Source: a virus (lineage: Duplodnaviria > Caudoviricetes). From it: a stretch of 46,345 nucleotides of DNA. Shown here one piece after another: positions 7,481 to 25,685 of the stretch; positions within the stretch are counted from its first letter, which is position 1, and every line of letters starts with the position of its first letter. The stretch is taken from IMG/VR virus record IMGVR_UViG_3300031519_000039, positions 1-46,345 of that record; one strand, 5' to 3'. A program made the translations under genes and the position numbers. Below the pieces are notes generated by a model that was not told the DNA's origin, did not search any database, and saw only the letters and a program-made list of their open reading frames with translations.

Positions 7481-7491
7481 AATAAATACCT

Positions 7492-7510
7492 TTATTATTA
7501 TTATTATTAT
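7492..7510. repeat. (TTA)6 trinucleotide microsatellite in the divergent intergenic region
   Basis: ttattattattattattat at 7492-7510. Confidence 0.85.
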
Positions 7511-7512
7511 AT

Positions 7513-7541
7513 ATTATAACACTTTCTATGAAGAAAGTAAA
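7513..7541 (-). promoter_or_regulatory. Sigma70-type promoter for the leftward transferase operon
   Basis: Minus strand reads TTTACT-17 nt-TATAAT with an extended -10 TGn. It lies upstream of the AAGGT SD and ATG at 7480. Confidence 0.55.
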
Positions 7542-8997
7542 GGCAAAAATGAAAAAGACAAATAAAGAAATAGATGATATGTTTCCAACTGACACGTTTT
7601 GTGCCTTACCTTGGATGCATTTATCCACTCGACCAGATGGAAGTATGCGTGTATGCTGTACAGCCAATGCGTCTGGTGTAGCTGTTAACGCTAAATCCAC
7701 AGATAAACCGGTATCAAAATCAGGTATTGTTCGTAATGATGATGGCCAACCAGCTAATCTCAATAATACGAGCCTCATGTCTGCTTGGAATAACGAATAT
7801 ATGCGTGGCGTAAGAAAGGCAATGCTCGATGGAAAGAAACCTTCAAGTTGTACGAAATGCTATAAAGAAGAAGATGCTGGCCATAGATCTAAAAGGATAT
7901 GGGAAACTCGTAAATGGATTAAAGATCTTGGTGGTGTTGACCAGATTATCGAAGATACACAAGCGGATGGATCAGTTCCTGCAAGGATACGCTACATCGA
8001 CTTACGCCTTGGTAGTAAGTGTCAGCTTGCATGTGTTATGTGCAGCCCTGATGATTCCAGTAATTGGATAAAAGACCATAAGAAGATATTTCCAACTCTT
8101 CAAAATAAAGAGCTAAGGAAGTCTATGTCATGGACAAAAGAAACTGGTGAGCAGGCTGCTTTAGGTACATCATACAATTGGCATAAAAATAATCCAGACT
8201 TTTGGGATGAACTATATGATACACTGCCAAACCTTAGACAGTTATATTTTGCTGGTGGTGAACCACTTATTATCGATGAACATTACACATTACTTGAGAA
8301 ATGTATTGATGAAGGACTAGCAGGCGATATTGAACTACGATACAATTCAAATGGCATTGAATGGCGTGAAGATCTATTTGATTTATGGAAACAATTCCGC
8401 AATGTAATCTTCCACTTCAGCGTTGATGATATTGATATACGAAATCATTTCATTCGTTATCCTTCAAACTGGGAAGTGATACAAGGATCAATGCATAAGA
8501 TGGATGCGTATCCTCATGGTAATCTAACACTCACAACTGCTTGGACGTGTACACTACTCAACATCTATTATCTACCTGAGTTTATCAAATGGAAGATTGG
8601 ACAAAACTTTAAGAATATGAATAAGTGGCCACATGGTGCTGGATTGTTTTCTTGTCATATAGCTTATTGGCCACCGCAACTTAACGTAAAAGCTTTGCCT
8701 GATTGGTTTAAGGCAGAAGTAAGACAAAAATTTGAAGAAGAACTATATCCTTGGCTAGAAGAAAACTGGCAAAGTTGTACTGGTGTTAAAGAAGCTGGTA
8801 TTACGTATGAAGAGTTTATAGCTTCTGAATACGGAATTAAACGAATGGAAGGGCTGCTCTCGTTTATGGAGGCTGATGATTGGAGTGAACGTTTGCCTGA
8901 AACAGCTGAGTGGTGTTACACCGTAGCAAAGACACGTTTTCTTAATTTTGATGAAGTATTTCCAGATCTTGAATGGCTAAAGTGGTATAATAAATGA
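7528..8997 (+). CDS. Radical SAM protein with N-terminal twitch-like Fe-S domain (rSAM-1)
   Basis: N-terminal FCALPW..VCC..CTKC, CQLACVMC and GGEP. The true start may be ATG 7549, which has an AAGG SD. Confidence 0.85.
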   Translation: MKKVKAKMKKTNKEIDDMFPTDTFCALPWMHLSTRPDGSMRVCCTANASGVAVNAKSTDKPVSKSGIVRNDDGQPANLNNTSLMSAWNNEYMRGVRKAMLDGKKPSSCTKCYKEEDAGHRSKRIWETRKWIKDLGGVDQIIEDTQADGSVPARIRYIDLRLGSKCQLACVMCSPDDSSNWIKDHKKIFPTLQNKELRKSMSWTKETGEQAALGTSYNWHKNNPDFWDELYDTLPNLRQLYFAGGEPLIIDEHYTLLEKCIDEGLAGDIELRYNSNGIEWREDLFDLWKQFRNVIFHFSVDDIDIRNHFIRYPSNWEVIQGSMHKMDAYPHGNLTLTTAWTCTLLNIYYLPEFIKWKIGQNFKNMNKWPHGAGLFSCHIAYWPPQLNVKALPDWFKAEVRQKFEEELYPWLEENWQSCTGVKEAGITYEEFIASEYGIKRMEGLLSFMEADDWSERLPETAEWCYTVAKTRFLNFDEVFPDLEWLKWYNK

Positions 8998-10127
8998 CAA
9001 AAACATTATGTTCAGCACCGTTCTTCCATCAGGTAGTTCATAGCACCGGTCAGTATAATTTGTGTTGTAGCGCTAGAACTACGACAGGCAAAGATTACAG
9101 TGATTGGAATGGTGCAGACTACCAAGCAATTAGAAAGCATATGTTAGAAGAAGATGAGCTTCCGGCTGAGTGTTTGCTATGCACAGAGCAAGAAGAAAGT
9201 GGAGCAGGTTCGCAACGTGAGCAATTGTTTCGTCTATACAATAGTCTTGATAGACCAGCACTTGACACAGTAACTGGAACATCTATGGATGCTCCTATAT
9301 CTTTAGATTTGCGAATGAATAATCTTTGTAATCTTTCATGCAGAATGTGCGGACCTGAAGCAAGTACTATGATATTGAAAGAAGCAAAAAAGAATCCGGA
9401 TTTACCGCTATGGGATGATCACGATGTTAAGTTAGCAGAAAAGGTTCATCCATTTGACATTGAAACACTTATCAAAAATGCTGGTTCTATTTTTGATTTA
9501 AGTTTACTTGGCGGTGAACCATCTGTGCAACCAGAATCAATTGCGTTGTTAGAAGAACTAGTAAGATTAAAGAAAACAAATATTCGTCTGTTTATTACTA
9601 CAAATGGAACAAATCATAATCCTAAGTTTTTTAATTTAATCCAGCAATTTAAACGACTTTGCGTAACAGTTTCTATTGATGGTTGGGGTAAACAACATGA
9701 GTATATTCGTGGGCCCGGGGCTAATTGGGATACAATATGGAAGAACGTCAAAAAGATTCAAGGCATGGCCAACAACCCTAAAATGATGTTACAACAAACT
9801 GTAACTACTTTAAACATCTTTGATTTTTGGAAACTAAATAAATTTAATGACACCGGTATAGAAATTATGACGTTCCACACATATGGTCCTCCTAAATATT
9901 CTCCAATGAATATACCAGATAAATGGAAAAAAATAGCAATATCCATTGCTAAAGAAAATAGTCAATACGAAGAAAATAGTAATATATGGCATCAAATGAA
10001 TAAACCCGGAGATATAAAGTTCGTAAAAGGTATGAAAGATTATACAGCAATGTTAGATAGTGTAAGAAACCAGTATCTTATTGACAACTTTCCTATAGCA
10101 TATGAAATGTTTGAGGATATTGGTTAA
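8994..10127 (+). CDS. Radical SAM protein with N-terminal twitch-like domain (rSAM-2)
   Basis: LCSAPF..LCC..CLLC, CNLSCRMC, GGEP, TTNGT and SIDG. ATGA overlap with the upstream gene. Confidence 0.85.
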   Translation: MTKTLCSAPFFHQVVHSTGQYNLCCSARTTTGKDYSDWNGADYQAIRKHMLEEDELPAECLLCTEQEESGAGSQREQLFRLYNSLDRPALDTVTGTSMDAPISLDLRMNNLCNLSCRMCGPEASTMILKEAKKNPDLPLWDDHDVKLAEKVHPFDIETLIKNAGSIFDLSLLGGEPSVQPESIALLEELVRLKKTNIRLFITTNGTNHNPKFFNLIQQFKRLCVTVSIDGWGKQHEYIRGPGANWDTIWKNVKKIQGMANNPKMMLQQTVTTLNIFDFWKLNKFNDTGIEIMTFHTYGPPKYSPMNIPDKWKKIAISIAKENSQYEENSNIWHQMNKPGDIKFVKGMKDYTAMLDSVRNQYLIDNFPIAYEMFEDIG

Positions 10128-11269
10128 TGTTTTGCTTTGTTCCTTTTATGCATTCACATGTTGACACTACAGCCACAAATAGAGTTTGCTGTGCTGGCCA
10201 ATGGTATAAGAAATACGATCTACAAGAGTGGGATAGTAAAGACTATCAAGATATTAGAACATCGTTAATGAGTGACGACACTGAATGGCGCCGCGAATGT
10301 ATTGAATGTAAGAATAAAGAAGAATCGGGAGCACAGTCTTTAAGACAACACTATAATGATGTGTATGATCAATTTGACAAACCTGAATTGAATATTGTTA
10401 CTGGTACAAACTTTGATGCTCCAATCTCTTATGATTTAAGTATGACTAACTTATGTAACTTATCATGTAGAATGTGCGGTCCACATAGCAGTTCTCAACT
10501 TCAAAAAGAATCAATTAAACATCCGGAGCTATGGCCTGAATACGCTGATGATTTACACAAAGACTACAATAAAAGATATGACTTAGATAAGATGCTTGAT
10601 AACGCTGAGTCTTTATTCGAAGTAAAATTTAGAGGTGGTGAACCTACGTTACAACCAGAAACTCGAGCCATTCTAGAAAGATTAATTGAAGTTGGTAATA
10701 TAAATCTCAATATTCTATTAACTACTAATGGAACAAATGCTAATAACACGTTTTTCAAACTACTTACACAATTTAAGAATGTTCATATTCAATTTTCAAT
10801 CGATGCTTATGGTAAAGGCCATGACTATATACGTGGACCAGCAAGTGATTTTAAAACAATCTGGTCAAATGTAAAAAAGATACGTGAACTCAATTGGGCT
10901 GGTAATGTTGATTTTGAAATCAATCAAACAGTTCAAACACTAAATATCTTTGACTTTTGGCGGTTACGTCAAGAGGTAAGCCTTCAATATGATTGGTGTA
11001 GATTTCGTAATTTTATTGTGTATGATCCGCATATTCATAGTCCTCGGTTTATGCCAGATCAATGGAAAGATATTGCAGTAGCAAAAGCAAAAGAAGCTGG
11101 AGCATATGAAGATGAAAAACACATCTTTAATATGCTGAATAAATATAATCATAATAACGATGTTATGCAAGCATTGCGTGGTAATATTGAACTCATGGAT
11201 GTGTCACGTAAGCAACATCTAAAAGATTATTATCCACTTGTTAATGATTTATTTGAGGCACATGAATGA
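10127..11269 (+). CDS. Radical SAM protein with N-terminal twitch-like domain (rSAM-3)
   Basis: FCFVPF..VCC..CIEC, CNLSCRMC and GGEP. Close paralog of rSAM-2. Confidence 0.85.
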   Translation: MFCFVPFMHSHVDTTATNRVCCAGQWYKKYDLQEWDSKDYQDIRTSLMSDDTEWRRECIECKNKEESGAQSLRQHYNDVYDQFDKPELNIVTGTNFDAPISYDLSMTNLCNLSCRMCGPHSSSQLQKESIKHPELWPEYADDLHKDYNKRYDLDKMLDNAESLFEVKFRGGEPTLQPETRAILERLIEVGNINLNILLTTNGTNANNTFFKLLTQFKNVHIQFSIDAYGKGHDYIRGPASDFKTIWSNVKKIRELNWAGNVDFEINQTVQTLNIFDFWRLRQEVSLQYDWCRFRNFIVYDPHIHSPRFMPDQWKDIAVAKAKEAGAYEDEKHIFNMLNKYNHNNDVMQALRGNIELMDVSRKQHLKDYYPLVNDLFEAHE

Positions 11270-12597
11270 GTACTTTTTGTCCACTAGCTTGGAACTCCAT
11301 CAACTTACGAAACAACGGTGACCTTCGGATTTGTTGTAACACTAATAGTTACAGTCCAAAGAAAGGTATCCTGCGTAAAGAAGATGGCACAACATATAAT
11401 GCTGGCCGTGATGATCTTAACGATGCTCGTAACGCAGACATTCTAAAAGAAGTACGTGTTTCAATGATGAAAGGCGAATGGAATCCTGAGTGTGAACGTT
11501 GCCGGCAAGAAGAAGTCAATGGCATTAGATCAAGGAGAGAATATGAATCAGAAGATTGGGATATTACTCTGGAAGAAGCAAAGGCAAAAACTGCAGATGA
11601 TGGCACTATATCTACAGCCGATTTTGATATTGAATTTTTTGACATTCGTTACGGCAATTTTTGTAACTTAAAATGTCGGATGTGTGGTCCTACTGATAGT
11701 CATTCTTGGTATGAGGACCACGTCAACTTATATAATAAGACTTCGTATAAAGATACTCATGATCTTATTCAACTGACAAAGAATGATAAAGGTCGATACG
11801 TTACAGATCAATATGATTGGTTTAAGAACTCAAACTTCTATTGGAATAACTTTGAAAAGCATACAACTAAAGCAAAGAAACTTTACATTGTAGGTGGTGA
11901 GCCACTGATTATTGACGAGCACTTTCAATCTCTTGAAAGGTTAGTTGCAACTGGTAGAGCTAAAGATATTGAGATTGAATACAACAGTAACTTGACTAAT
12001 GTTACTCCACGTATGCTTAAGATTTGGGAAAACTTTAAACAAATTCGGATTGGTGTTTCAATTGATGGATATGGCGATGTCTTTGAATATCAAAGGACAC
12101 CTGCTAAATGGAAGTCCGTTTATAAGAACATGCAAAAGTTGAATGATAATCCAAACATTAATCTAAAAGGTTGGTTTGCTTTTACTGTTACACCATTCAA
12201 TGTTTTTCATCTACCTGAGTTTATGAAGTGGAAGCTAAATGAATCTGGTTTGACTCGTTATAATCCTGTCACTGGACCAAGGCCAATCATTACTCAGCAC
12301 ATGTGTCATGCTCCAAAGTATTACAATATCAAAGTACTACCGCAAATGTTAAAAGACGAAGTATGTGATCACTACCAAGATTATATTGATTGGGTTTATA
12401 AATCACATCATTCAGATCATGTAAAAGTTAAGTTTGCAGAATTGCTTGATGGTGTAATGGATTTCATGAACTCAGAAAGCTACACTGAAGAATACTTAGA
12501 TAAGTTTGTAGACCATACACGAAAGCTTGATCTTTTCCGTAACCAAAATATTCTTGATGTTGTACCACAATATGAAGGTTTATTTGGTGGAAGATAA
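11266..12597 (+). CDS. Radical SAM protein with N-terminal twitch-like domain (rSAM-4)
   Basis: FCPLAW..ICC..CERC, CNLKCRMC and GGEPLIIDEH. Paralog of rSAM-1. Confidence 0.85.
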   Translation: MSTFCPLAWNSINLRNNGDLRICCNTNSYSPKKGILRKEDGTTYNAGRDDLNDARNADILKEVRVSMMKGEWNPECERCRQEEVNGIRSRREYESEDWDITLEEAKAKTADDGTISTADFDIEFFDIRYGNFCNLKCRMCGPTDSHSWYEDHVNLYNKTSYKDTHDLIQLTKNDKGRYVTDQYDWFKNSNFYWNNFEKHTTKAKKLYIVGGEPLIIDEHFQSLERLVATGRAKDIEIEYNSNLTNVTPRMLKIWENFKQIRIGVSIDGYGDVFEYQRTPAKWKSVYKNMQKLNDNPNINLKGWFAFTVTPFNVFHLPEFMKWKLNESGLTRYNPVTGPRPIITQHMCHAPKYYNIKVLPQMLKDEVCDHYQDYIDWVYKSHHSDHVKVKFAELLDGVMDFMNSESYTEEYLDKFVDHTRKLDLFRNQNILDVVPQYEGLFGGR

Positions 12598-13822
12598 AGT
12601 ACTCGACTTCTCATCTACATTTTGTTCTTTACCATTTAACCACGCTTTTGTCGGACCGGGTGGAGAGCAAAAGCCATGTTCACGTTTCTTACGTCCACTC
12701 ATTAACTATGACGACTATGAAGGAACTATGAATGAGCTGCGTCATTATAAGATGACTGGCCAAAGACATCCCGGTTGTCGTAAATGTTATGAAGAAGAAG
12801 ATGCTGGACGTACACGCTCACTAAGACAAATCTACAACAATGTAAGTGGATTCAACTACGATATTGTACACGATGTAGATCCAAACAATCCAAAAGTTAC
12901 ATGGCTCGAGCTTTCATTCTCTAATAGGTGTAACCTTAAATGTAGAATGTGTGGTCCATTCTATTCAACAACTTGGTTTGAAGATTGGGCAGAAGTACCT
13001 GAGTATGCATTTGGCGTTGCAGGTGTAGGTAATACAAGAGAAGCAGTAAATAAATTCTTAGCAGTTAACAAAAAGAAACCTATTACGTTTGATGTTACCA
13101 CTTTAGACAAATACATTCCAGATTTACGAATGGTAAAGTTAACTGGTGGTGAACCATTTCTTATTCCTGAGTATGATTACATTTTAGAAAAGGTACATGA
13201 GATTGGTCATGCCGAAAACATGTGGCTTGACTATAGTACTAACCTGACTGTCCGGCCGAAGAAAAGATTATTAGAACTCTGGAGTAAGTATAAGCAAATC
13301 AAGTTTGCAACATCGCTTGATGGAATTGGTAAGGTAATTGAATATCAACGGAATCCTACAAAATGGGAAACAGTTGATACAGTAATGAATGATCTTATGC
13401 AGATTCCAAATGCGTGGGTTGGTGTACGTACAACTCAAACTATTTACAATATACTAGATATGCCAAACATAGCAATGTACTTTGCAGAGCTTGAAGATAA
13501 ATATCATAAGACACATAGCCATGTCAACGCTTTTGGCGAAGATAGTTGGTTGAATTTTGTTTGTGCATCTACACCTGAGTTTGTTTCAATTACTGTTCTT
13601 CCTAAATGGGCAAAAGACATAGTAGCTGAAAGGTTAGCTTGGTCAGCACCTACACAAAAGATTCAAGATAACTTTGATCACATAGTCAATTATATGTACA
13701 ATGAAGATAACTCGCATAGACTTCCACAGTTTGTTGATTACACTAAAAAGCTTGATAAGCTAAGAGGCGAAAGCTTTGCAGAAGTTGTACCTGAATTTGC
13801 AGGATTGTTAAATGAAGTATGA
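12587..13822 (+). CDS. Radical SAM protein with N-terminal twitch-like domain (rSAM-5)
   Basis: FCSLPF..PCS..CRKC, CNLKCRMC and GGEPF. Start taken as GTG 12587 behind GAAGGT; ATG 12572 is an alternative. Confidence 0.8.
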   Translation: MEDKVLDFSSTFCSLPFNHAFVGPGGEQKPCSRFLRPLINYDDYEGTMNELRHYKMTGQRHPGCRKCYEEEDAGRTRSLRQIYNNVSGFNYDIVHDVDPNNPKVTWLELSFSNRCNLKCRMCGPFYSTTWFEDWAEVPEYAFGVAGVGNTREAVNKFLAVNKKKPITFDVTTLDKYIPDLRMVKLTGGEPFLIPEYDYILEKVHEIGHAENMWLDYSTNLTVRPKKRLLELWSKYKQIKFATSLDGIGKVIEYQRNPTKWETVDTVMNDLMQIPNAWVGVRTTQTIYNILDMPNIAMYFAELEDKYHKTHSHVNAFGEDSWLNFVCASTPEFVSITVLPKWAKDIVAERLAWSAPTQKIQDNFDHIVNYMYNEDNSHRLPQFVDYTKKLDKLRGESFAEVVPEFAGLLNEV

Positions 13823-14720
13823 AGACCTTACACAAGAACATCTAGGAACTAAACGGCAAAGGCCAATGTTCCTTAGCGAATTTACTAAGTTTAGAGCTCA
13901 ATTGGATATGAGCACATATCCGCATGATCCAGCAGAATATTGTAACTATACGTTTTTACCAACAATAGATGAATGGATTAACGATCATCAACGAGCTTGG
14001 TATCTTGGACTTGATAACTTTCATATTAGACATACCATTTTAGGTGTAACTCAGCAACTTGATGAATTACACCAGCTCCATACTAATAACATAGCTGTAT
14101 TCAGAGGTGAATACAAATACCATAAAAGACTACCGTCATTTGTAAGAGAAATCGATAGTAAGCTTGATATAATGCCGGGTGAATGCGTTATTATATCAGC
14201 GCCATCAACTATTACTACTAACTTATTACCAAACATGACAGAAATTTTAGATTATTGTCATGCAATAGAAGCACAAGTACATATTGACGGTGCATGGTTT
14301 CCGCAATGCCGCGACTTTGAATTAGATGTTTCGCATCCAGCAATTAAGTCTGTATCAGTATCTTTATCAAAAGCCTTTGGTATGGGATCACAACGTATTG
14401 GTATTCGTTATATGAGAGAACCAATTGTTGGACCTATATCAATTATGAATGATTATGGCTATCAAAATGTTTCAGATGCTTGGATTGGCGTAGAAGCCAT
14501 AAAACATTTTGGTCCTGACTATTGGTGGAGAAATTACGAGGATAAATATGAACAGGTGTGTAGAGACTTTAAGTTAGACCCATCAGACTCAATCCATGTC
14601 GGTTGGCGTAAAATGGAATATGTCGGTATTCGTACACCACTTCGAATGCTAATAGAAAATAAATATGACGAACGTGGCACTGATAAAGGATTAAACGATG
14701 TCGAGCGGAACGAGGAATAG
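13812..14720 (+). CDS. PLP-dependent fold-type I (aminotransferase class I/II-like) enzyme
   Basis: HIDGAW (PLP-binding Asp) and SLSKAFGMGSQRIG (Schiff-base Lys motif resembling HisC-type SKAFGLAGLRIG). Confidence 0.7.
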   Translation: MKYEDLTQEHLGTKRQRPMFLSEFTKFRAQLDMSTYPHDPAEYCNYTFLPTIDEWINDHQRAWYLGLDNFHIRHTILGVTQQLDELHQLHTNNIAVFRGEYKYHKRLPSFVREIDSKLDIMPGECVIISAPSTITTNLLPNMTEILDYCHAIEAQVHIDGAWFPQCRDFELDVSHPAIKSVSVSLSKAFGMGSQRIGIRYMREPIVGPISIMNDYGYQNVSDAWIGVEAIKHFGPDYWWRNYEDKYEQVCRDFKLDPSDSIHVGWRKMEYVGIRTPLRMLIENKYDERGTDKGLNDVERNEE

Positions 14721-15258
14721 ATATTCAGGCAAAAACCGGATAATTGATAATCCGTTTGATATGGATGTGCTTGATTTAATTATGGAAAATAGCACTGAAC
14801 CAGCTCGCTTACTCGGTAAAGAGAAAAAGAATTGGGTAAAACGTTTACCACCTTTTGGACAACAATATCTTAATAAGCATATAGACTGTTTCAAAGGGAG
14901 ATGGGAGTTTGAGCTTTTTCATTCGGAAGTCAACGTTCTTTATCATACTGATACTATACTTGGTAATGATGGGGATCTTGGTATTATCATACCATTGGAC
15001 TGGAAACCATTTCATGAAGTACCAGCAACTATTATGTACAAATGGTGGTCTGACCGAAGAGTCATGTACGCCGGTAACGGTGAAATCAAATATCAAGATA
15101 CAAATGAAATAGCTTTACTTGAAAAAGAAGTACCAGAAATAGATCTCATATTTGGTTGGTCATTAGATAAAGCTCTTATTTTTGATTGTAAACAACTACA
15201 TTCAGCTAAGAAATTTACAGAAGGCTGGAAGGAATTTATCATTGGCTTCGTCGTATAA
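14698..15258 (+). CDS. 2OG-Fe(II) dioxygenase-like (DSBH fold) protein
   Basis: HxD (YHTD), GIIIPL and a distal His in ALIFDCKQLHSA. Confidence 0.55.
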   Translation: MSSGTRNRYSGKNRIIDNPFDMDVLDLIMENSTEPARLLGKEKKNWVKRLPPFGQQYLNKHIDCFKGRWEFELFHSEVNVLYHTDTILGNDGDLGIIIPLDWKPFHEVPATIMYKWWSDRRVMYAGNGEIKYQDTNEIALLEKEVPEIDLIFGWSLDKALIFDCKQLHSAKKFTEGWKEFIIGFVV

Positions 15259-16474
15259 AGATGTAGAAAATTTAAAGAAAGCTGCACTTGATAAAGATTC
15301 TTGTGGTACAGTCTGTATGATACCATGGGAAGGCATGGCTGTGACAATGCGAAATGAAATTCGTCCTTGTTGTCGGTTTCCCGGAAAAGCTGCAGTAGCT
15401 CCAGAGCTTTATGAAGAAGCCTTTAAGGGTTTACGCCAAAACATGTTAGCCGGTGTAAGAGATGAACGATGTAGGAAGTGTTGGGAAGAAGAAGATGCAG
15501 GCATTCCGAGTATGCGTACGCGCGCTAATATCTTTCACGGATATGAATTCAAAAAAGATATACTTACAGAAAAACCACGTAAGTTAACTCATATCGAATT
15601 AAGTCTTGATAATATTTGTAACTTTCAATGCCGAATGTGCGGTAGCCAGTTTTCTTCAAAGGCATTGAAACGCGATGTGTGGTTACAGGACAATCATCCT
15701 GATGTTCATATTGAACCAGCTAAAGTTCAAAAGTCAAGATACGAAACTTTGAAAGATATGAATATTGATTGGTCTGAACTGCGTAGCGTTAAGTTACTTG
15801 GTGGTGAACCATTCATGTCTCCAAACTTTATGGACTTTCTTTATTTCCTTGATATGCGCGCTGACGTATCAAAAGTAGATTTAGAAATTGTAACGAATTG
15901 CTCTTATAAGATGCCTGAAGAAATGGCTGAAATGATTAATGAGTTTAAGTTTCTCAGACTATCAGGCAGCTTTGACGGAACTAAAAAAATTAATGAATAT
16001 CAAAGAGTTGGATCTAATTGGGAAGAAGGCTTAAGTAATTGGCTTGAGTACCGTGATCTATTAACAAAGAAGCGTATGGTTATACATCAAACATTTAGTG
16101 TATTAAATGTAAATACAATAGATGAATCACTTGCGCTATACGAGCCGCATTGCGATTCTCAATCTTGGTCGTATGATGAATATCAATTATCATTTCTTTG
16201 TGCCCCTGATTGGTTTGAAGAATGGGTACTTAGTACAAATAAGAATGAAAAGCTAAGAAACATATTTAAGAAAAGAGTGCATGATGACGAAAAGTGGAAG
16301 AGAGTTATGCGTACTATTTACGCTCTTGACGAATTTCATGAAACAAATATAGAAGAAGCAAATCCAGAATTAGCTCGTCTTTTAAGGATAAATAACAAAC
16401 GAAGAATATATAATCATAAATGTAATGGTGACCCAGATTGTTTTTATTGTAATATGTACCAAGAAGTGATATGA
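15242..16474 (+). CDS. Radical SAM protein with N-terminal twitch-like domain (rSAM-6)
   Basis: VCMIPW..PCC..CRKC, CNFQCRMC and GGEPF, plus an extra C-terminal C-x4-C-x2-C. Start taken as TTG 15242 behind AAGGA. Confidence 0.8.
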   Translation: MASSYKDVENLKKAALDKDSCGTVCMIPWEGMAVTMRNEIRPCCRFPGKAAVAPELYEEAFKGLRQNMLAGVRDERCRKCWEEEDAGIPSMRTRANIFHGYEFKKDILTEKPRKLTHIELSLDNICNFQCRMCGSQFSSKALKRDVWLQDNHPDVHIEPAKVQKSRYETLKDMNIDWSELRSVKLLGGEPFMSPNFMDFLYFLDMRADVSKVDLEIVTNCSYKMPEEMAEMINEFKFLRLSGSFDGTKKINEYQRVGSNWEEGLSNWLEYRDLLTKKRMVIHQTFSVLNVNTIDESLALYEPHCDSQSWSYDEYQLSFLCAPDWFEEWVLSTNKNEKLRNIFKKRVHDDEKWKRVMRTIYALDEFHETNIEEANPELARLLRINNKRRIYNHKCNGDPDCFYCNMYQEVI

Positions 16475-17652: not shown

Positions 17653-18179
17653 TGGGAGTGGTTCTAGATAAAAAAGAAATCATTTATTTACGACCGTTTA
17701 AGACTGCAAATACTACTATCAGTAACGCATTAATTCAAGGTCCGGACAAAGGTATTTCATTAACACCGATTGGTGGTATGGGAAATCAAACTTGGAAAGA
17801 AGTCAAAGACAAAGTAAGTTTACACCAATGGCACAACTATACAATTGTTGCAACTATAAGAAACCCATGGGATCAAATGTATGATGTGTGGTCATTTGGA
17901 CAAAGTAATTTATCTTTCTATGATTGGCTAATGACTGAGGAAGCAAAGAAAAAAACACAAAGTTATTTTTTGTTTGATAAACATAAATGTCAGGCTGATA
18001 AAGTTATTCGGTTTGAAAATTTGTATGAAGATGCTAAAAACGTTTTAGGTATCACTATTACCGAACATTTAAACCCATCTCCAAAAGTTGATTATCGTGA
18101 TTATTATAATAGATCTACTCGAGAATATGTAGAGTGGTTATGCAATAAAGAAATTAAGGAATTTGGTTATGAATATTGA
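17652..18179 (+). CDS. Sulfotransferase family 2-like protein
   Basis: RPFKTANTT (PSB-like), IRNPWD, IRFENL and C-terminal FGY. Confidence 0.7.
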   Translation: MGVVLDKKEIIYLRPFKTANTTISNALIQGPDKGISLTPIGGMGNQTWKEVKDKVSLHQWHNYTIVATIRNPWDQMYDVWSFGQSNLSFYDWLMTEEAKKKTQSYFLFDKHKCQADKVIRFENLYEDAKNVLGITITEHLNPSPKVDYRDYYNRSTREYVEWLCNKEIKEFGYEY

Positions 18180-18900
18180 GATACCAGTTTTAACTGAAAA
18201 CGTTATCATTCGTCTATCAGGTGGAGCAGATAGTGCTTTACTTCTTTATATGATATGTGATGAATACGAAAAAGCCGAAAAGCCATTAAACATCTGGCCA
18301 ATAACTGTGCTTCACGGTGTTCGTAATTGGCAAAGTTATCATGCTCAACAAGTAATTGATTGGATGACTGATAAGTTTCCGAATGTTAATTTTATGGAAC
18401 ATGAAGTCTGGCGGTGTGATGACCCAGGTGGCAAACCAGATAGTAAGAACGCAAACAATTATGTTGACTATCAAGAAAAACTTATTGATGGTGTAGTTAG
18501 TGTTGTTAAAGAAACGTGTGCGGTATTTAACGGGGTGACTGCAAATCCGCCAGAAGACATTGGCCAAAAGCATTGGGGAAGCTCAAAAGTATTTGGCGAA
18601 AAGGTTTGGGACGTACGAGAAAAGCATCGAGATTGGCATTTGATTGCTGATAGAAAACCAGTTCAAGACGATGTAGCACGTAAACTAATTCATGTCAATC
18701 CTTTTATTCAACACCACAAAGGTCATGTTGCAGAGCTTTATTATAACTATGAATTAGTTGATACGTTGTTACCTATTACTCGATCGTGTGAAGGCTGGGA
18801 TTATATGACAGAAGGATTTAGTAAAGAATGCGGAGAGTGCTGGTGGTGTATGGAACGGGATTGGGCTTTTAATGTACACAATAAAGAAAGTACATCTTGA
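18169..18900 (+). CDS. QueC-like (7-cyano-7-deazaguanine synthase-like) PP-loop ATPase
   Basis: LSGGADS PP-loop and C-terminal TRSC..CGECWWC..R zinc motif. AAGGA SD before ATG 18169. Confidence 0.7.
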   Translation: MNIEIPVLTENVIIRLSGGADSALLLYMICDEYEKAEKPLNIWPITVLHGVRNWQSYHAQQVIDWMTDKFPNVNFMEHEVWRCDDPGGKPDSKNANNYVDYQEKLIDGVVSVVKETCAVFNGVTANPPEDIGQKHWGSSKVFGEKVWDVREKHRDWHLIADRKPVQDDVARKLIHVNPFIQHHKGHVAELYYNYELVDTLLPITRSCEGWDYMTEGFSKECGECWWCMERDWAFNVHNKESTS

Positions 18901-19858
18901 ATCTACACAGCTTTGTCAGGCCATGTGCCCGATGTGCGATCGAGTTACGCTTGATGGTAAGCTCAATCCGCATTTAAGTAGCGCATCATTATCTATTGAC
19001 GATATTCAAAATATGTTCAGTCCAGACTTCATAGCAAATCTTGATGAAATGTATATGTGTGGCAACCTTGGTGATCCAATGTTAGCACCTGATTGTGTTA
19101 AGATCTTTGAATATTTTCGTACACATAATCCAAAAATATACTTATCAATGAATACAAATGGTGGAGCGCGCAAACCTGAATGGTGGGCTCAACTAGCTAA
19201 AGTAGTAAACCATGTCACGTTTTCAATTGACGGCCTTGAAGATACTAATTCTGTTTACAGAAAAGGCGTAGTGTGGTACAATGTAATAAACAACGTAAAG
19301 GAGTTCATTTATGCTGGTGGAAAAGCAAAATGGGATTATCTGGTCTTTGAGCACAACGAACATCAAATCGAATTGGCACGACAACTATCAGAAGAACTTG
19401 GCTTTGTGGACTTTAGACCAAAAGCAACAAGTCGTTACGATAAAGAAAGGCCAGCGTGGCAATCTTATTGGAGAGGCAGAGCGGCCGAAGTTATCAGACC
19501 TCCAAGTCAATTACAATATCAAAGTGATGTAGTCAATAATCCATTAGAAGATAGACATAAGTTTGACATAAATCCAAAGTGCGTTAAAAATAAAGAAATA
19601 TATGTTTCGGCTACAGGGCACGTGTTCCCTTGTTGTTGGGCACACACATCACTGGCTAGTTCTCAAAATGTTTCAATGGAAGAAAAGCTTGATATTACTT
19701 CAATGGTTGCAGAAAACAATGCAAAAGAAGTAGGAATAAATAAGGCTATAGAATGGTTTGATAATATGTTTGAACGGTGGGACACTGATGATAAGCCATT
19801 TATATGTTCTGCCAAATGTAATGCGAAACAAGACACGGTGAAGTTACAGTATGTATGA
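18872..19858 (+). CDS. Radical SAM protein with C-terminal twitch/SPASM domain (rSAM-8)
   Basis: CQAMCPMC, GNLGDP, NTNGG, SIDG and C-terminal C..IYVSATGHVFPCC..CSAKC. Confidence 0.85.
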   Translation: MYTIKKVHLESTQLCQAMCPMCDRVTLDGKLNPHLSSASLSIDDIQNMFSPDFIANLDEMYMCGNLGDPMLAPDCVKIFEYFRTHNPKIYLSMNTNGGARKPEWWAQLAKVVNHVTFSIDGLEDTNSVYRKGVVWYNVINNVKEFIYAGGKAKWDYLVFEHNEHQIELARQLSEELGFVDFRPKATSRYDKERPAWQSYWRGRAAEVIRPPSQLQYQSDVVNNPLEDRHKFDINPKCVKNKEIYVSATGHVFPCCWAHTSLASSQNVSMEEKLDITSMVAENNAKEVGINKAIEWFDNMFERWDTDDKPFICSAKCNAKQDTVKLQYV

Positions 19859-20915
19859 TGTTAAGATGGTCCACTTTGAGCCTACACAAATGTGTCAGGC
19901 TTCTTGTCCTATGTGTGATAGGAATAAGAATGGTGGAGAAGTAAATCAATATCTTAAAGATGAGTCAATGACTCTTGAAGGTTTCAAAGCTGCGTTTTCA
20001 CGCGAGTTTATTGCCAACCTTGATACATTCTTTTTCTGTGGTAATCACGGCGATCCTATCTTTGCGCCTGACATGTTAGAACAAGCAAAGTTCGTACGTG
20101 AATGTAATCCTACAATCAATATGTTTGTCACTACCAATGGTGGAGCACGAAAGCCTGAGTGGTGGGAAGAACTAGCTCAAGTCGTATCGTTTGTAAATTT
20201 CTCGGTTGATGGATTACAAGACACTAATCATTTCTACAGACAGGGTGTCAAGTGGTCTAATGTTGAAGATAACATGGCTGCCTTCTGCGATGCTGGTGGA
20301 CACGCTAAATGGACATTTCTTGTATTCAATTACAACGAACATCAAATAGAACAAGCTAGAATGTTTTCAAAGATTTTAGGAGTCAAAGACTTTATTGTAA
20401 AGAAGTCAGGACGGTATATCAACACTGCTAATTTACAAAAGAAAGACGATCATCAAGCAGTCTTTCGAAAGAAAGATTCAACACGCTTATCACCACCTAA
20501 GAATCCAAAGTATCGCAATAAAGCAATTGATGAAGACTATGAATCAATTGTCAAAGCTTATGGTTCTATGGACAAGTTTATTGATGTGGCTGAGATTAAA
20601 CCGAAATGTATGCAAAAGAAAGAAATCTATGTATCTGCCGAAGGACTTGTCTTTCCATGTTGTTGGTTAGCTGGTCAAGTATATAAATGGTGGAGACCTA
20701 TAGAAGATTCTCAAGAATATAAAGTCATTCAAAAGACTGGTGGCTTTGAGAAGATTAATGTACACTATACACCTCTTGAAGAGATTATGGAAGGTGATTT
20801 CTTTTCATCAGTAAAAGATAGCTGGGACATTCATGGGGTTGGCCAAGGTAGAATGAAAACGTGTGGATTAAAATGTAATGTAGGTTTTGATCCGTTTGAG
20901 GCGCAATGGAAATGA
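19851..20915 (+). CDS. Radical SAM protein with C-terminal twitch/SPASM domain (rSAM-9)
   Basis: CQASCPMC, GNHGDP and C..IYVSAEGLVFPCC..CGLKC. Close paralog of rSAM-8. Confidence 0.85.
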   Translation: MYDVKMVHFEPTQMCQASCPMCDRNKNGGEVNQYLKDESMTLEGFKAAFSREFIANLDTFFFCGNHGDPIFAPDMLEQAKFVRECNPTINMFVTTNGGARKPEWWEELAQVVSFVNFSVDGLQDTNHFYRQGVKWSNVEDNMAAFCDAGGHAKWTFLVFNYNEHQIEQARMFSKILGVKDFIVKKSGRYINTANLQKKDDHQAVFRKKDSTRLSPPKNPKYRNKAIDEDYESIVKAYGSMDKFIDVAEIKPKCMQKKEIYVSAEGLVFPCCWLAGQVYKWWRPIEDSQEYKVIQKTGGFEKINVHYTPLEEIMEGDFFSSVKDSWDIHGVGQGRMKTCGLKCNVGFDPFEAQWK

Positions 20916-22273
20916 GAATATTAGGTGTGTCCGAAGGAAGCCACGACGCAGCATGGGCAGTCGTAGAAGATGGTGTTATATTAGAAGCACACCATGTTGA
21001 ACGGCATACTCGTGAAAAGAACGATAAGTGGATTCCCGGTAAGCTGTTACCGGGTTATGACTTAATAATTGGTCATGAAAACAAAGATAGAGTTAACGAT
21101 AGACGCGCAGCTGCTGGCCAAAGGTATTACTCACCAAACATTATAACTAATTTTGAATATAATCATTATGAAACGCATGCATGGGCTGGATGGGCAACAG
21201 CGCCTTTCAAAGATTGTGATATTCTTTGTATTGATGCTATTGGTGAAAACGAAACAGCTGCAGTATTTGAAGTAAGGAATGGAATATTCACTAAGACTTG
21301 GGATATGAAATATCCTCAAAGCATTGGTCTTATCTATTCAGCCGTGACACATGCTCTTGGTTATAAGCCTATGGAAGAAGAATATATTGTAATGGGCCTT
21401 GCTGCTTATGGCGAACCAGTATATAATTTAGATCATTTACTGAGTTTGAATTGTCATAAAGGATTAAGCATAGGCGCTATTACAACCGATACATCGTTAT
21501 TAGGCGGAGGAACACATACAAAGAAACCTGAAGATATTGCAGCCTCGGTACAACTATTATATGAAAACGAATTACTTAAACTAATTAATAAATACTGTAA
21601 ACATCCTAATCTTATCTTAATGGGTGGATGCGCTCTTAATTGTGTAGCTAATTCAAAAATTAAAAGAAAGAATATTTGGATTATGCCTAACCCTGGCGAT
21701 GCTGGTTCTTCGTTAGGAGCCGCGGCTAGACATTTTGGTCATCAGCTTATTTGGAAAGGACCGTACCTTGGCACTAATATCGAAAATGAAATCAATCCTC
21801 GTGACGTGGCTCGATATCTTTTTGAGCATAGTGTGTGTGGTGTGGCTAATGGCCGTGCTGAGTTTGGCCCTCGCGCCCTTGGTAATCGTAGTCTTATTGC
21901 TGACCCCCGTTGCGATGTTAAAGATACGGTTAACGAAATCAAACGAAGACAAAAGTTCAGACCATTTGCACCGGCAATCTTAGAAGAATATCAGTATGAA
22001 TATTTTGAAGGTCCAATGAATGAGTATATGCAGTTTACAGCAAAAGCAAAACACGATTATAAATCAGTTACGCACATAGATGGTACTGCTCGAGTGCAAG
22101 TAGTTCATCGTAATTGTAAATCTGTTATTAGACCAATACTTGAAGAATGGTATGAATTAACTGGTTGTCCAATGTTATTGAATACGAGTTTAAATATTAA
22201 AGGACAACCAATGGTAGATACTTGGGAACATGCTCAAGAATTTGAAAGAAAATATAATGTCAAAGTTTTCTAA
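20912..22273 (+). CDS. O-carbamoyltransferase (NodU/CmcH/TobZ family)
   Basis: ILG...HD, HYETHA, GGCALN, GDAG, EFGPRALGNRS, RPFAP, HIDGTARVQ and LLNTSLN. Confidence 0.9.
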   Translation: MRILGVSEGSHDAAWAVVEDGVILEAHHVERHTREKNDKWIPGKLLPGYDLIIGHENKDRVNDRRAAAGQRYYSPNIITNFEYNHYETHAWAGWATAPFKDCDILCIDAIGENETAAVFEVRNGIFTKTWDMKYPQSIGLIYSAVTHALGYKPMEEEYIVMGLAAYGEPVYNLDHLLSLNCHKGLSIGAITTDTSLLGGGTHTKKPEDIAASVQLLYENELLKLINKYCKHPNLILMGGCALNCVANSKIKRKNIWIMPNPGDAGSSLGAAARHFGHQLIWKGPYLGTNIENEINPRDVARYLFEHSVCGVANGRAEFGPRALGNRSLIADPRCDVKDTVNEIKRRQKFRPFAPAILEEYQYEYFEGPMNEYMQFTAKAKHDYKSVTHIDGTARVQVVHRNCKSVIRPILEEWYELTGCPMLLNTSLNIKGQPMVDTWEHAQEFERKYNVKVF

Positions 22274-23141
22274 AAAATTATTAATTGCAGGCGGCTGTAG
22301 CTGGACATCTCCATGGGAACCGTATTATAAAGAAGCTGGCATGAAAGCTGTTTGGCCGAATCACGTAGCTGACTGGTTTGAATGGGATCTATTAAATGTT
22401 GGTCATGGTGGTGCATCTAATGATATGATTCATAATAGAGTGATTGACGCTATTACAGAAAACGAAGATAGAGATATTGTTGTAATGGTTGCATGGTCTC
22501 AAGCTATGAGATTGGCTATTTTTGATATGCCAATAGCACAAATGACTTTTAATGTATTCATGCCAGATTTATCGCCACCATTTGGTAAAGGAAAAACAGA
22601 TTGTCAGCAAGCGCTAAGAACGTTATTGCAACATCATGTTCATGAGTTTGGCGGAGATCTTATTGGTCCAGACAGTATAGACGGAACTACAGGTGTCCCA
22701 GTTGGAGTATCTCGATCTGATCACTACCGCATGATTGCTCGGTGGTCAATACGGCACATCTATATGCTAAATGAATACTGTATATCTAAAGGCATTCCAA
22801 TTATTCATCACAGAGCACTCAATATACTAAATGGCATTGAATGGGTAATGGATCCTGAAGTCAATATGAAAAACAGAAATAAAGTTTATGAAGCTGTTAA
22901 CGATGACAGCCGAATCAATATCATCTATAACAAAATAAAAACATGGGATAACGTAGTCGGCCCACATTTATTTGAGCCTGAAAGCTCATGCTATGAATTA
23001 TATCCACAATACTTTCTTAGTAGACAAGAACAACACCCAAATGCTAGAGGAATGCAATTGATTGCTCATAGTTTTGTAAATAAGTTCATTGAACGATATG
23101 AAGAAAAAGCAAAGACCGAAGCGGATTATGTCTATGACTAG
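22257..23141 (+). CDS. SGNH/GDSL-like hydrolase or acyltransferase-like protein (paralog 1)
   Basis: Block I-like GGCSWT, block II-like GGASN and block V-like HPN. Start taken at ATG 22257. Confidence 0.55.
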   Translation: MSKFSKKLLIAGGCSWTSPWEPYYKEAGMKAVWPNHVADWFEWDLLNVGHGGASNDMIHNRVIDAITENEDRDIVVMVAWSQAMRLAIFDMPIAQMTFNVFMPDLSPPFGKGKTDCQQALRTLLQHHVHEFGGDLIGPDSIDGTTGVPVGVSRSDHYRMIARWSIRHIYMLNEYCISKGIPIIHHRALNILNGIEWVMDPEVNMKNRNKVYEAVNDDSRINIIYNKIKTWDNVVGPHLFEPESSCYELYPQYFLSRQEQHPNARGMQLIAHSFVNKFIERYEEKAKTEADYVYD

Positions 23142-23835
23142 ACTACTTATAACTGGCGGTTGCAGCATCACTGATCAAAAAACAAACGATTATTTGTATG
23201 AAGGCGGAGTGTTTACTTGGCCAACAGCAGTAGCTGATTATATGGAATCTAAATTACTCAATGTAGCAAAGCGTGGTAGAGGCAATGACTACATAGAAAA
23301 TATGATATTTGACGCAATATTAGAAAATCATGATAAGTATGATTGCACTGTAATGGTGTATTGGACCGAAGCATATAGAGTAAATCTTTTCGATACTGAT
23401 ACACTTTGGGATTATAGCCGTGGAAATCAAAACGAATTAATGTATCAAGGTATTTGTCAAAAAGATGCTATTAATATGTCTTTTCGTAATATGAGAAGAT
23501 TAAAGTTAGTATGTGATAGCTTCAATATTCCATGTTATTACCGATTAAATCAAGGGTTTCATGCTAAAGTAAAAGGTCAAGAAGATGTGTATGATTGGCT
23601 AGCTGATCACCCTGCTATAACTGAATTTAATTTATCTTACGCTGAAGTTTTATCTGGTAGATTATCTAATCATAATGATAAAAATAAACATCAATGGCAA
23701 ACTTTACCAGATGCGCATCCTAATCAAAAAGGTCAAGATGAAATAGCAAAAATGTTTATAGATACGATGAATGGCACAATTTTAGACGATATTGAGCCAA
23801 CACCGTTATTAATTGATAGGTTTGTTTATGACTAA
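23134..23835 (+). CDS. SGNH/GDSL-like protein (paralog 2)
   Basis: GGCSIT, GRGN and DAHPN. Start overlaps the upstream stop. Confidence 0.55.
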   Translation: MTRLLITGGCSITDQKTNDYLYEGGVFTWPTAVADYMESKLLNVAKRGRGNDYIENMIFDAILENHDKYDCTVMVYWTEAYRVNLFDTDTLWDYSRGNQNELMYQGICQKDAINMSFRNMRRLKLVCDSFNIPCYYRLNQGFHAKVKGQEDVYDWLADHPAITEFNLSYAEVLSGRLSNHNDKNKHQWQTLPDAHPNQKGQDEIAKMFIDTMNGTILDDIEPTPLLIDRFVYD

Positions 23836-24535
23836 GCTTATTATAACTGGTGGTTGCAGTGTTGGAGATCAGGAATGTAAAGATTATAAAACTGAAGGTG
23901 GTGTGACTGTATGGCCAACATTATTATCTGAGTTAACAAATACTAAAGTTCTAAATGTTAGTAAACAAGGTATGGGTAATGATTACATTGAAAACACCGT
24001 GTTTGATGCTATACTTAAAAACAAAGATAAGTATGATTGTACAGTTTTAGTATATTGGACAGAATCATTACGCATAAACTTATTTGATACACACACTAAC
24101 ATGGAAATCAAAAAAATAATATGTGATTCAGAAACAGATATATGTGTGTCGTCTTTAGGATATGATCCTTATACAGTTATTAATAAAAACTTTCGTAATA
24201 TGAAAAGAATACAATTAATTTGCAATAAATTTAACATCAAATGCTATCACCGATTAGTTTATGGTTTTTCACACGGTTCTGCAGTTTTAAAAAAGTGGCT
24301 TGGTAATCATCCTGCTATTGAAGAATTTAACTTATCATATTTTGAATTGATCGGTGGCAGATGGTCGAATCGCAATAATCATATGATGGAAAACAATCAA
24401 TTGCATGGTGGTCATCCAAATCAAAAGATGCAATATGAAATTGCTAATATGTTTATAGATACAATGAATGATGTTAATATGGAAAGATTAGAAAAGCCAG
24501 CTGAAATGTCTGGACGAGATTTTGTTTATGACTGA
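23828..24535 (+). CDS. SGNH/GDSL-like protein (paralog 3)
   Basis: GGCSVG, GMGN and GGHPN. Clearly similar to paralog 2 (NDYIEN..FDAIL, DKYDCTV.VYWTE). Confidence 0.55.
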   Translation: MTKLIITGGCSVGDQECKDYKTEGGVTVWPTLLSELTNTKVLNVSKQGMGNDYIENTVFDAILKNKDKYDCTVLVYWTESLRINLFDTHTNMEIKKIICDSETDICVSSLGYDPYTVINKNFRNMKRIQLICNKFNIKCYHRLVYGFSHGSAVLKKWLGNHPAIEEFNLSYFELIGGRWSNRNNHMMENNQLHGGHPNQKMQYEIANMFIDTMNDVNMERLEKPAEMSGRDFVYD

Positions 24536-25628
24536 TTTGAAATGGAGTCAATACGACTTCACAAAAATACCACTTGATAAAATTGTAAAAGTCGGTCAAA
24601 GGACTATGCTGCATCGTGACTTGTTCACTGTGAGCTGGTTGCTTGGTCGTTTTTGTAATTACTCATGTTCTTATTGTTGGCCATACGCATCAAGCCGTAC
24701 AAAAGACCATAGACCAATTGATTTGATTCTTATGACAATTGACGAAATTAAACGTCAGTCACGTGGTAATGGCTATAATTCTTTTCATTTTAGTTTTAGC
24801 GGTGGTGAACCTACATTCCATCCACAGTATTTAGAAATTATGCAATATCTTGCTGATGACGTGCCTGAGTGTAATTATCATTCAGTTCATATGACATCTA
24901 ACATTTCACGTAAAATGAAATGGTTTGAAGAATACGCTGCAATTTGCAGTAAGTTTCACAGGTCAAGTATCACAGCCTCGTGTCATAGAGAACATGTAGA
25001 TACACAAGCCAAAGTTGCGGAGTTTGCCGACAAGTTAGAATATTGCCAAAGCCAAGACATTCAAGTAACAATCAATCAAGTGATGCTGCCGGATCTATTT
25101 GAGCAATGTTGGGAAGACGCGTTATACTTCCATGAAAGAGGAATCAATGTCACTCTTAAACCTCAGTCTGATCCTACTGCTAGTTTTATCGTCGATGGTT
25201 ATACTGACAATATGCTTGAACGCTTACGCAACGGCATGCCTCAACGAGGATATACCGATCAGAAAAAAGAAATCATTAGACCTAAACCAAAAGAACAATT
25301 AGATCTACGGTACGAAACTACTGGTGTTCCACAACATATGCAAGTAGAATTAGAAGATGATGAAGGAAAAAAGTGGTATATGGATCAAGCTGAGCGATTC
25401 AACACTTTTGAATTCAATAAGTTTAAAGGATGGAGCTGCGAGTCTGGCTATCGTAGTATTATTATCCGAGAACCTGATGGTTCTATTAAACGTAGCTATT
25501 CCTGTGATGATGAACCATTAGGTAATATTGCCACTGGATTCAAATTATTTGATAAACCAATGCCATGTATCACAAATAGTTGTGTTTCTTCTGCTGATTC
25601 TAAGATCCCTAAAACCAAAATTGTATAA
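24528..25628 (+). CDS. Radical SAM protein with C-terminal Cys cluster (rSAM-10)
   Basis: CNYSCSYC, GGEPT, MTSN and C-terminal CESG..SC..CITNSC. Confidence 0.85.
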   Translation: MTDLKWSQYDFTKIPLDKIVKVGQRTMLHRDLFTVSWLLGRFCNYSCSYCWPYASSRTKDHRPIDLILMTIDEIKRQSRGNGYNSFHFSFSGGEPTFHPQYLEIMQYLADDVPECNYHSVHMTSNISRKMKWFEEYAAICSKFHRSSITASCHREHVDTQAKVAEFADKLEYCQSQDIQVTINQVMLPDLFEQCWEDALYFHERGINVTLKPQSDPTASFIVDGYTDNMLERLRNGMPQRGYTDQKKEIIRPKPKEQLDLRYETTGVPQHMQVELEDDEGKKWYMDQAERFNTFEFNKFKGWSCESGYRSIIIREPDGSIKRSYSCDDEPLGNIATGFKLFDKPMPCITNSCVSSADSKIPKTKIV

Positions 25629-25631
25629 ATA
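25624..25631 (+). promoter_or_regulatory. T4-type late promoter
   Basis: TATAAATA upstream of the 25686 structural gene. Confidence 0.75.
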
Positions 25632-25685
25632 ATGGCTATAGGCAGGGTGGTATAACCACCGACAAAGAACTCATCGGAGTAGTTC

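Follow-up and report, generated by a model that had tools for sequence, protein, structure and literature searches.

Arrays of radical S-adenosylmethionine (SAM) enzyme genes are not new in phages, having been published in 2010 and 2017 (statements on individual papers here refer to the excerpts of them that were available). The Campylobacter phages CP220 and CPt10 contain 11–12 such genes per genome, with a swappable five-enzyme module that includes an amidinotransferase (Timms, 2010; PMC2853527). The marine T4-like genome TARA_ERS488813_N000010 harbors 12, as well as an iron–sulfur (Fe-S) A-type carrier gene, and was discussed in terms of Fe-S-related auxiliary metabolism; the available part of that report holds no subfamily, operon or substrate analysis (Nishimura, 2017; PMC5332604). 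Pelagimyophages and cyanomyophages possess a host recognition cluster, a variable island between VrlC-type tail and neck genes that contains glycosyltransferases (GTs) and radical SAM cassettes. The GTs were ascribed to a change of the host O-chain, and in the sections available the radical SAM cassettes were left without a function (Zaragoza-Solas, 2020; PMC7029224). Among characterized enzymes, BtrN is a twitch radical SAM dehydrogenase with a four-Cys-ligated auxiliary cluster that oxidizes a cyclitol (PMC9012708). Here we describe a run of 18 genes at positions 7528–25628 of the virus record IMGVR_UViG_3300031519_000039 (Duplodnaviria; Caudoviricetes), ten of which encode predicted radical SAM enzymes, together with a divergent operon beside it. 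The most probable function, at roughly three chances in four, is a late, cytoplasmic sugar-tailoring line.

The window analyzed was the whole 46,345-base virus contig, which is a genome fragment from an uncultured marine T4-like phage; its tail, neck, terminase, sheath, portal and capsid genes are of T4-like type. Genes are named by their left coordinate (Table 1). An initial annotation had called the density of radical SAM genes exceptional relative to characterized biosynthetic clusters; that it is exceptional for phages is not supported, in view of the published arrays and of the 16 genes of one family that were found in a single jumbo phage (see below). A tblastn search of CP220 and CPt10 with three of the window enzymes gave no match, and homology of the Campylobacter phage genes to this family is not shown.

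Ten radical SAM enzymes in an overlapping gene run

The interval 7528–25628 was tiled by 18 plus-strand open reading frames (ORFs) without gaps, and every one of the 17 junctions had a credible in-frame start that overlapped the preceding stop by 1–29 nt, including three ATGA/−4 junctions at radical SAM genes, two TAATG/−1 junctions and one additional −4. Several starts given by the ORF finder were too early, the likely ones being 12572 or 12587, 15242, 18169, 20912, 22257, 23134, 23828 and 24528. The gap-free run had been claimed in the initial annotation and was confirmed, as were the ten proteins with CxxxCxxC and an auxiliary Cys cluster. Its single translationally coupled unit stood in part: the overlaps are real and suggest such a unit, coupling itself being predicted from them. 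The unit also extends beyond the 18 genes: the divergent six-gene operon (3937–7480), arranged head-to-head with the block, is part of one island with it. The 47-nt spacer between the two operons contained a (TTA)n/AT-rich run at 7484–7521. The sequence is real and widespread: one contig of a separate assembly spanned 8959–26000 with 92 substitutions and no gaps, indels were absent in the four DNA sequencing runs compared, and at least half of the window's sampled words were present in 15 sequencing runs. A tRNA/tmRNA scan of the window detected none.

The CxxxCxxC motif occurred in ten block proteins, where 0.08 would be expected after shuffling the 18 proteins, and in no other listed gene of the window. 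The profile PF04055 matched all ten, eight above the Pfam cut-off and two (7528 and 15182) slightly below it. In each protein the motif was followed by a GGE-like or GD SAM-binding motif, and four additional Cys residues were present, N-terminal in seven (C-x16/17-C...CxxC) and C-terminal in three. The seven scored 206–390 bits over nearly the whole length of the model NF033640 (N_Twi_rSAM; cut-off, 170 bits), with the twitch Cys cluster preceding the radical SAM core. The other three (18872, 19851, and 24522), of different architecture, remained below this cut-off (41–48 bits). The mostly open-access literature that was searched yielded no publication that mentions NF033640 or "N-terminal twitch" by name or deals with the function of this family. 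Furthermore, the ten did not fall into housekeeping families, which the initial annotation had raised as a possibility: NCBIfam equivalogs for MoaA, QueE, viperin, anSME, and PFL activase scored below 50 bits against cut-offs of 130–650, and no NCBIfam cut-off for maturases of ribosomally made, post-translationally modified peptides (RiPPs) was approached. PHROGs returned merely generic radical SAM labels for the ten. The one enzyme of the ten that was folded, 11266, gave a model with a predicted local distance difference test (pLDDT) score of 92.5 and a radical SAM fold; its best match among radical SAM chains had Z 12.4, a root-mean-square deviation (rmsd) of 4.2, and 227 aligned residues. 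The N-terminal Cys region aligned weakly with residues 187–257 of BtrN (whole-sequence E 8e-5), and the top match of the C-twitch profile was BlsE. By motif, and for 11266 also by fold, the ten are assigned to the radical SAM superfamily, and SAM cleavage is predicted. In several jumbo-phage loci (L088, L091, L092, and L099) the 18872-type enzyme was split into two adjacent ORFs (~237 + 106 aa) after a QueC-like gene, with core and twitch domain separated.

The paralogs shared 20–43% pairwise identity in global alignments. A quick tree of 73 proteins placed the seven N-twitch enzymes in six lineages, each with orthologs in other phages, and 8994 and 10127 formed the sole sister pair. Against best orthologs of 63–90% identity, nine of the ten had nonsynonymous to synonymous rate ratios (dN/dS) of 0.03–0.20, compared with 0.06–0.14 for the tail tube, capsid and terminase genes, all of these values being rough as synonymous sites are near saturation. 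An ortholog above 50% identity was absent for 8994. These values indicate purifying selection on nine of the ten enzymes and support the view that the paralogs are distinct, maintained enzymes in at least six old lineages rather than the dead copies that the initial annotation had considered.

Relatives and partner genes

All 20 viral loci retrieved with 11266, several of which were near-duplicates, encoded a relative of it, and 19 showed at least three motif-bearing ORFs with the order partly kept. NF033640 matches numbered 6–21 in each of five records searched and 0–2 in five contigs chosen by a neck gene. Among 49 loci anchored on the structural gene 25686, the content of this slot ranged from zero enzymes to the complete array, with a GT/methyltransferase core as an intermediate state. 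The slot cassettes of relatives included GT8, methyltransferase, DegT aminotransferase and HAD-nucleotidyltransferase genes, and relatives additionally held amidinotransferase-like, DegT, HAD and B12-radical SAM genes. A complete 519-kb jumbo phage contained 16 NF033640 genes above the cut-off in four separate clusters, and two A-type carriers; its fiber-like proteins were large, with TG/GP/PT repeats, and were not rich in Asp-Ser (DS). Only four records of cultured phages matched 11266. In the cultured Vibrio phage K566, four N-twitch genes alternated with two GT8 genes and one GT4-like gene, and RsoM2USA had one N-twitch gene with SGNH-like and carbamoyltransferase genes. Searches of cultured phages with 24522 and 6134 gave no match.

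As the initial annotation had noted, an Fe-S assembly or flavodoxin gene was not present among the listed ORFs of the window, which is explained by the contig being a fragment. It had also read a heavy demand on host Fe-S, SAM and reductant supply from the array; that the phage must depend entirely on the host for Fe-S is not supported: an Fe-S A-type carrier was encoded in all four cluster-rich relatives and in one of six other relatives, five of which had 0–2 radical SAM matches, with most records being fragments. Related islands also added nucleosidase-like (PF01048) and nitroreductase-family genes (L087:6505-7059, L090:11307-11981, and L153:9275-9910), which could serve 5'-deoxyadenosine removal and electron supply.

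In a bacterial species-genome collection, 45 of 56 matching loci were titled Bdellovibrionota. The other bacterial matches were not accepted as true bacterial copies, because all five bins tested held T4-like capsid genes and were treated as phage contigs; four further bins lie outside this count. In a set of 39 Bdellovibrionota loci, which leaves out six matches to paralogs, orthologs of 7528 were present in 38, of 24522 in 34, and of 19851 in 25, with all three in 23; a methyltransferase/GT-like family was found in 22 and GT2 in 14. The phage and Bdellovibrionota versions of this core trio were 38–65% identical, and the 7528 clade took in 11 bacterial proteins (SH-aLRT 100). The wider bacterial regions encoded GT2, GT1, DegT, CapD, sugar transferase, epimerase and AT3-SGNH acyltransferase proteins (families taken from 30 proteins picked out of many). 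Several Bdellovibrionota copies lay in megabase contigs amid housekeeping genes. NF033640 occurred in 33 of 151 genomes from the phylum of a Bacteriovoracaceae center and in 3 of 251 from the phylum of a Gammaproteobacteria center, one of the three being the phage-bearing center itself. Five Bdellovibrionota genomes had 3–19 NF033640 matches each; no publication on such an expansion in Bdellovibrionota or predatory bacteria was found in the same literature. In one Bdellovibrionota bin (L195:3208-5373), a 7528-type radical SAM protein was fused behind the GT-like domain that lies ahead of the core in jumbo phages. GT2 proteins with CxxxCxxC, which Pfam does not call radical SAM, were present in further bins (L198, L217, L221, and L235).

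The island also encodes candidate GTs and capping enzymes. In the 6134 family, D84 and D86 of the DxD motif were invariant across 32 sequences and a Pfam match was absent; the model of 6134 gave Z 17.1, rmsd 3.3, and 218 aligned residues with its best GT-A match (GT8/GT24-like), which indicates a GT-A/GT8-like glycosyltransferase. PHROGs contained no family for the GT, SGNH, pyridoxal phosphate (PLP) and 2-oxoglutarate (2OG) genes, and a search of the PDB with the SGNH profile gave no match. The H-x-D...H, K motif of 14698 is presumably that of a 2OG-Fe(II) oxygenase. The QueC match of 18163 was partial, and QueC-like genes are often multi-copy. A hydrophobic segment above 1.54 was found in none of the 24 island proteins, and a membrane-like segment is predicted in none. 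The gaps of the block held no small ORF for a precursor peptide, and a conserved candidate was absent from the 70 related loci screened; this screen covered the block and related islands, and the rest of the genome could still hold one.

Table 1. Features of the island and its surroundings in the 46,345-base window.
Position	Strand	Feature	Remarks
3937..4602	-	GT-A (GT8-like) glycosyltransferase candidate	invariant DxD in family alignment; family profile matches GT8 chains only, weakly
4515..5108	-	GT-A (GT8-like) glycosyltransferase candidate	invariant DxD; weak GT8-only profile matches
5099..5731	-	class I SAM-binding Rossmann protein, methyltransferase-like	top PDB match spermidine synthase, E 7e-6
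5722..6141	-	139-aa protein, unknown family	kept in close relatives; no credible Pfam match
6134..6832	-	GT-A fold glycosyltransferase (predicted)	model matches UGGT, WbbM, LARGE1, LgtC, glycogenin, Z 15.5-17.1
6833..7480	-	sulfotransferase	PF13469, E 3e-15
7482..7488	+	ATAAATA, T4-type late-promoter-like motif	40 nt upstream of first gene 7528
7528..8997	+	N-terminal-twitch radical SAM (NF033640, 390 bits)	core member, 46-52% to Bdellovibrionota
8994..10127	+	N-terminal-twitch radical SAM (NF033640, 250 bits)	sister of 10127 (41%), no close ortholog
10127..11269	+	N-terminal-twitch radical SAM (NF033640, 245 bits)	
11266..12597	+	N-terminal-twitch radical SAM (NF033640, 365 bits)	modeled, radical SAM fold
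12572..13822	+	N-terminal-twitch radical SAM (NF033640, 295 bits)	ORF open from 12527
13812..14720	+	PLP fold-type-I aminotransferase-like protein	D159, SLSK187 invariant
14698..15258	+	2OG-Fe(II) oxygenase-like protein	invariant H83-x-D85...H168, K178; Pfam match absent
15242..16474	+	N-terminal-twitch radical SAM (NF033640, 206 bits)	ORF open from 15182
16471..17652	+	N-terminal-twitch radical SAM (NF033640, 218 bits)	
17652..18179	+	sulfotransferase-like	PF03567 clusters, score 0.96-0.97; not kept in relatives
18163..18900	+	PP-loop (QueC-like) ATP pyrophosphatase	C-x13-CxxCxxC
18872..19858	+	radical SAM, C-terminal CC...CxxxC cluster	
19851..20915	+	radical SAM, C-terminal Cys cluster	core member, 38-42% to Bdellovibrionota
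20906..22273	+	NodU/NolO-type carbamoyltransferase	PF02543 + PF16861
22230..23141	+	SGNH/GDSL-like protein	G-x-S block, HP near C-terminus; relative matches PF13472, E 4e-5
23089..23835	+	SGNH/GDSL-like protein	
23813..24535	+	SGNH/GDSL-like protein	
24522..25628	+	radical SAM, C-terminal Cys cluster	core member, 50-65% to Bdellovibrionota
26051..29338	+	Asp-Ser-rich fiber-like protein	47 DS, 10.3 expected; candidate substrate only

Proposed pathway, candidate acceptor and alternatives

The flanks of the island matched tail fiber and head-tail adaptor families, and the island corresponds to the variable host recognition cluster of T4-like phages, between VrlC-type tail and neck genes. ATAAATA, which we take to be the T4-type late-promoter consensus, was found in seven of ten spacers examined, every one ahead of structural genes or the 7528 block, and stood ahead of four of the five closest orthologs. 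Internal promoters were rejected, as the seven copies within the operon fell in the range of same-letter permutations (1–8).

The fiber-like protein 26051 adjoining the block is a candidate acceptor. Ser followed 47 of its 88 Asp residues, with a maximum of 26 in 10,000 shuffles, and Asp-Thr was depleted (2 vs. 8.2). A DS excess was likewise present in 1951–2535 and 29376–30455 and peaked in the subclade whose islands are largest; within 26051, DS was conserved at 74–89%, compared with 44–75% for other Asp. A GANTC DNA motif was rejected as the source of the DS pairs because the excess was confined to a single frame (41/5/2) and both Ser codon sets were used. Of 49 loci, 34 had enough fiber sequence and 20 were complete, leaving 15 distinct, fully seen islands for comparison: DS ratios were 1.47–2.57 in the 12 with GT8-like genes and 1.09–1.41 in the 3 without (p 0.002, uncorrected for kinship). 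An N-x-S/T tag in other cluster phages was also considered and discarded, being weak or absent (0.95–1.41). The DS motif offers a lead on this clade's glycosyltransferases and is no evidence on what the radical SAM enzymes act on. In one relative, a second GT cluster outside the island includes a gene for a 233-aa protein (L102:3989-4690) that starts with VIGNGDS, a motif reminiscent of sialyltransferase-like proteins, and lacks a Pfam match; it is a rival acceptor-writer.

Sugar tailoring is favored because it is indicated alike by the set of enzymes, the loci in bacteria and the cultured phage, and because no precursor peptide was seen. In the pathway that we infer, every chemical step included, the ATAAATA at 7482 would direct late transcription, and the GT8-like enzymes would place sugars on virion proteins, where Asp-Ser may mark the acceptor sites in this clade. 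Each radical SAM enzyme, its auxiliary cluster probably fully Cys-ligated as in BtrN, would abstract one sugar C-H, and that carbon would be oxidized, epimerized or dehydrated. Ketones formed in this way would be aminated by the PLP enzyme; the product would receive its caps from the carbamoyl-, sulfo-, methyl-, SGNH, PP-loop and 2OG enzymes; and an A-type carrier encoded in another part of the phage genome may help to load the clusters. Gene swapping in the island would then vary the coat and with it host binding or shielding. Among the radical steps suggested in the initial annotation, oxidation, epimerization and deoxygenation fit these neighbors, whereas peptide crosslinking fits less well, there being no precursor ORF. 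That the edited sugar chain is built late in the host cytoplasm and attached to the phage's own outer tail proteins is a tentative placement, which we rate a little below even; virion proteins are preferred over the host surface or a free metabolite because of the late motif, the position among tail genes and the lack of membrane proteins. The broadest version, in which marine T4-like and jumbo phages have a self-contained virion-glycosylation line whose non-redundant radical SAM enzymes, as many as ten and of a domain-permuted family, edit a sugar coat on Asp-Ser sites of tail fibers by a core pathway common to predatory Bdellovibrionota, is possible yet doubtful. Phages and Bdellovibrionota, which are unrelated bacterial predators, would then use one radical glyco-chemistry on their surfaces.

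Several observations weigh against this reading. Neither substrate nor product is shown. The fold of 11266 does not split sugar from peptide enzymes, with anSME, BlsE, CteB, viperin and SkfB tied at Z 11.5–12.4, and a twitch-only profile had no match in the PDB. ATAAATA stood ahead of just 7 of 15 orthologs overall and was not enriched across the window (19 vs. 20.5 expected). RNA-labeled contigs filled 18–27 of 30 bins in four runs from three studies, and such contigs cannot show transcription or timing. On the acceptor side, the GT-negative group comprised two lineages, with a weak GT2-like gene in two of its three islands; the DS excess showed no correlation with the number of radical SAM genes (rho 0.20, p 0.53) and was not seen in three other cluster-bearing phages (ratios 0.78–1.05; two 26–35% complete and one 76% covered). 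Many DS sites lie in YDS/ADS repeat turns and could have a structural role. Furthermore, many Bdellovibrionota copies lie amid housekeeping genes, others had no glycan neighbor, and as these bacteria have no virions, the core must serve a different acceptor there.

An edited nucleotide-sugar or glycan on the host surface (lipopolysaccharide/O-chain or glycoprotein), for example against superinfection, would agree with the surface-glycan loci of the bacterial homologs and with cytoplasmic enzymes that could supply a host pathway, and has been argued for the GT8 genes of the pelagimyophage island in the excerpts available (PMC7029224). However, the island lacks a membrane, flippase or ligase-like protein, and a late-type promoter and tail-gene position would be too late for exclusion; we regard this as unlikely. 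Quite unlikely, too, is a free small molecule, such as an inhibitor resembling an aminocyclitol or a nucleoside, or a compound of cofactor type. The amidinotransferase-like, DegT, HAD and B12-radical SAM genes of relatives are typical of aminoglycoside-type clusters, the nearest relatives of solved structure include BtrN and BlsE, and a similar trio was interpreted as antibiotic synthesis in the part of that paper available (PMC12801897), but neither an exporter nor a resistance gene was seen, the placement among tail genes is constant, and gene content varies piecemeal about a glycosyltransferase core.

Direct action on residues of virion proteins or on a peptide (Ser oxidation as by anSME, epimerization or crosslinks) would account for the tie of anSME and RiPP maturases as top structural matches and for the DS-rich fiber next to the block. 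With no precursor candidate in the block or in the related loci, DS not following radical SAM number and maturase cut-offs out of reach, it is improbable. Carbamoyltransferases, PLP enzymes, QueC-like proteins and radical SAM enzymes have precedents in base modification, and all these types occur in the block; still, phage DNA hypermodification is given little chance, since the context is that of late and tail genes, the QueC match is partial and often multi-copy, and in the closest long relative, thymidylate-synthase-like, epimerase, UDP-glucose dehydrogenase and DNA methyltransferase genes form a candidate block of their own beside the replication genes. That most copies are dead or mere iron sinks is hardly credible: the activity of the ten is predicted only, and contigs from RNA libraries cannot show transcription, but the CxxxCxxC and GGE-like or GD motifs are kept in all ten, and dN/dS in nine of them resembles that of capsid and terminase.

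Comparison with described systems

The reason for the dozen oxygen-sensitive radical SAM genes of some phages has been a question since 2010 to which the papers found gave no answer, and no paper was found that measured the chemistry of such arrays. The locus described here narrows this question, as it combines at least six old, selected lineages, a trio common to Bdellovibrionota glycan loci, a partner operon of GT8 fold and a candidate acceptor motif. The arrangement is common, so that its value lies in the chemistry and not in one genome. If the sugar-coat reading is true, these phages hold many radical sugar-editing enzymes that are as yet untapped, and host recognition by abundant ocean phages gains an additional chemical layer.

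The four-Cys auxiliary motif of the window enzymes is like that of BtrN and BlsE, although the twitch is N-terminal in seven of them and identity is below 20%. General O-glycosylation in Bacteroidota acts on D-(S/T)-(A/L/V/I/M/T) in non-cytoplasmic proteins, with both Ser and Thr used (PMC12871550). An Asp-Ser excess is shared by fiber 26051, but the +2 residue fits at just 25 of its 47 DS sites, Asp-Thr is depleted, the fiber is synthesized in the cytoplasm and no transfer machinery was seen; judged by its sequence, the fiber does not appear to be a target of that system. Radical SAM tailoring is not described in the available excerpts on either the Bacteroidota or the mycobacteriophage system. 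In the latter, phage GTs that glycosylate virions lie near structural genes (Freeman, 2023, as cited in PMC12619734), an arrangement like that of the island described here.

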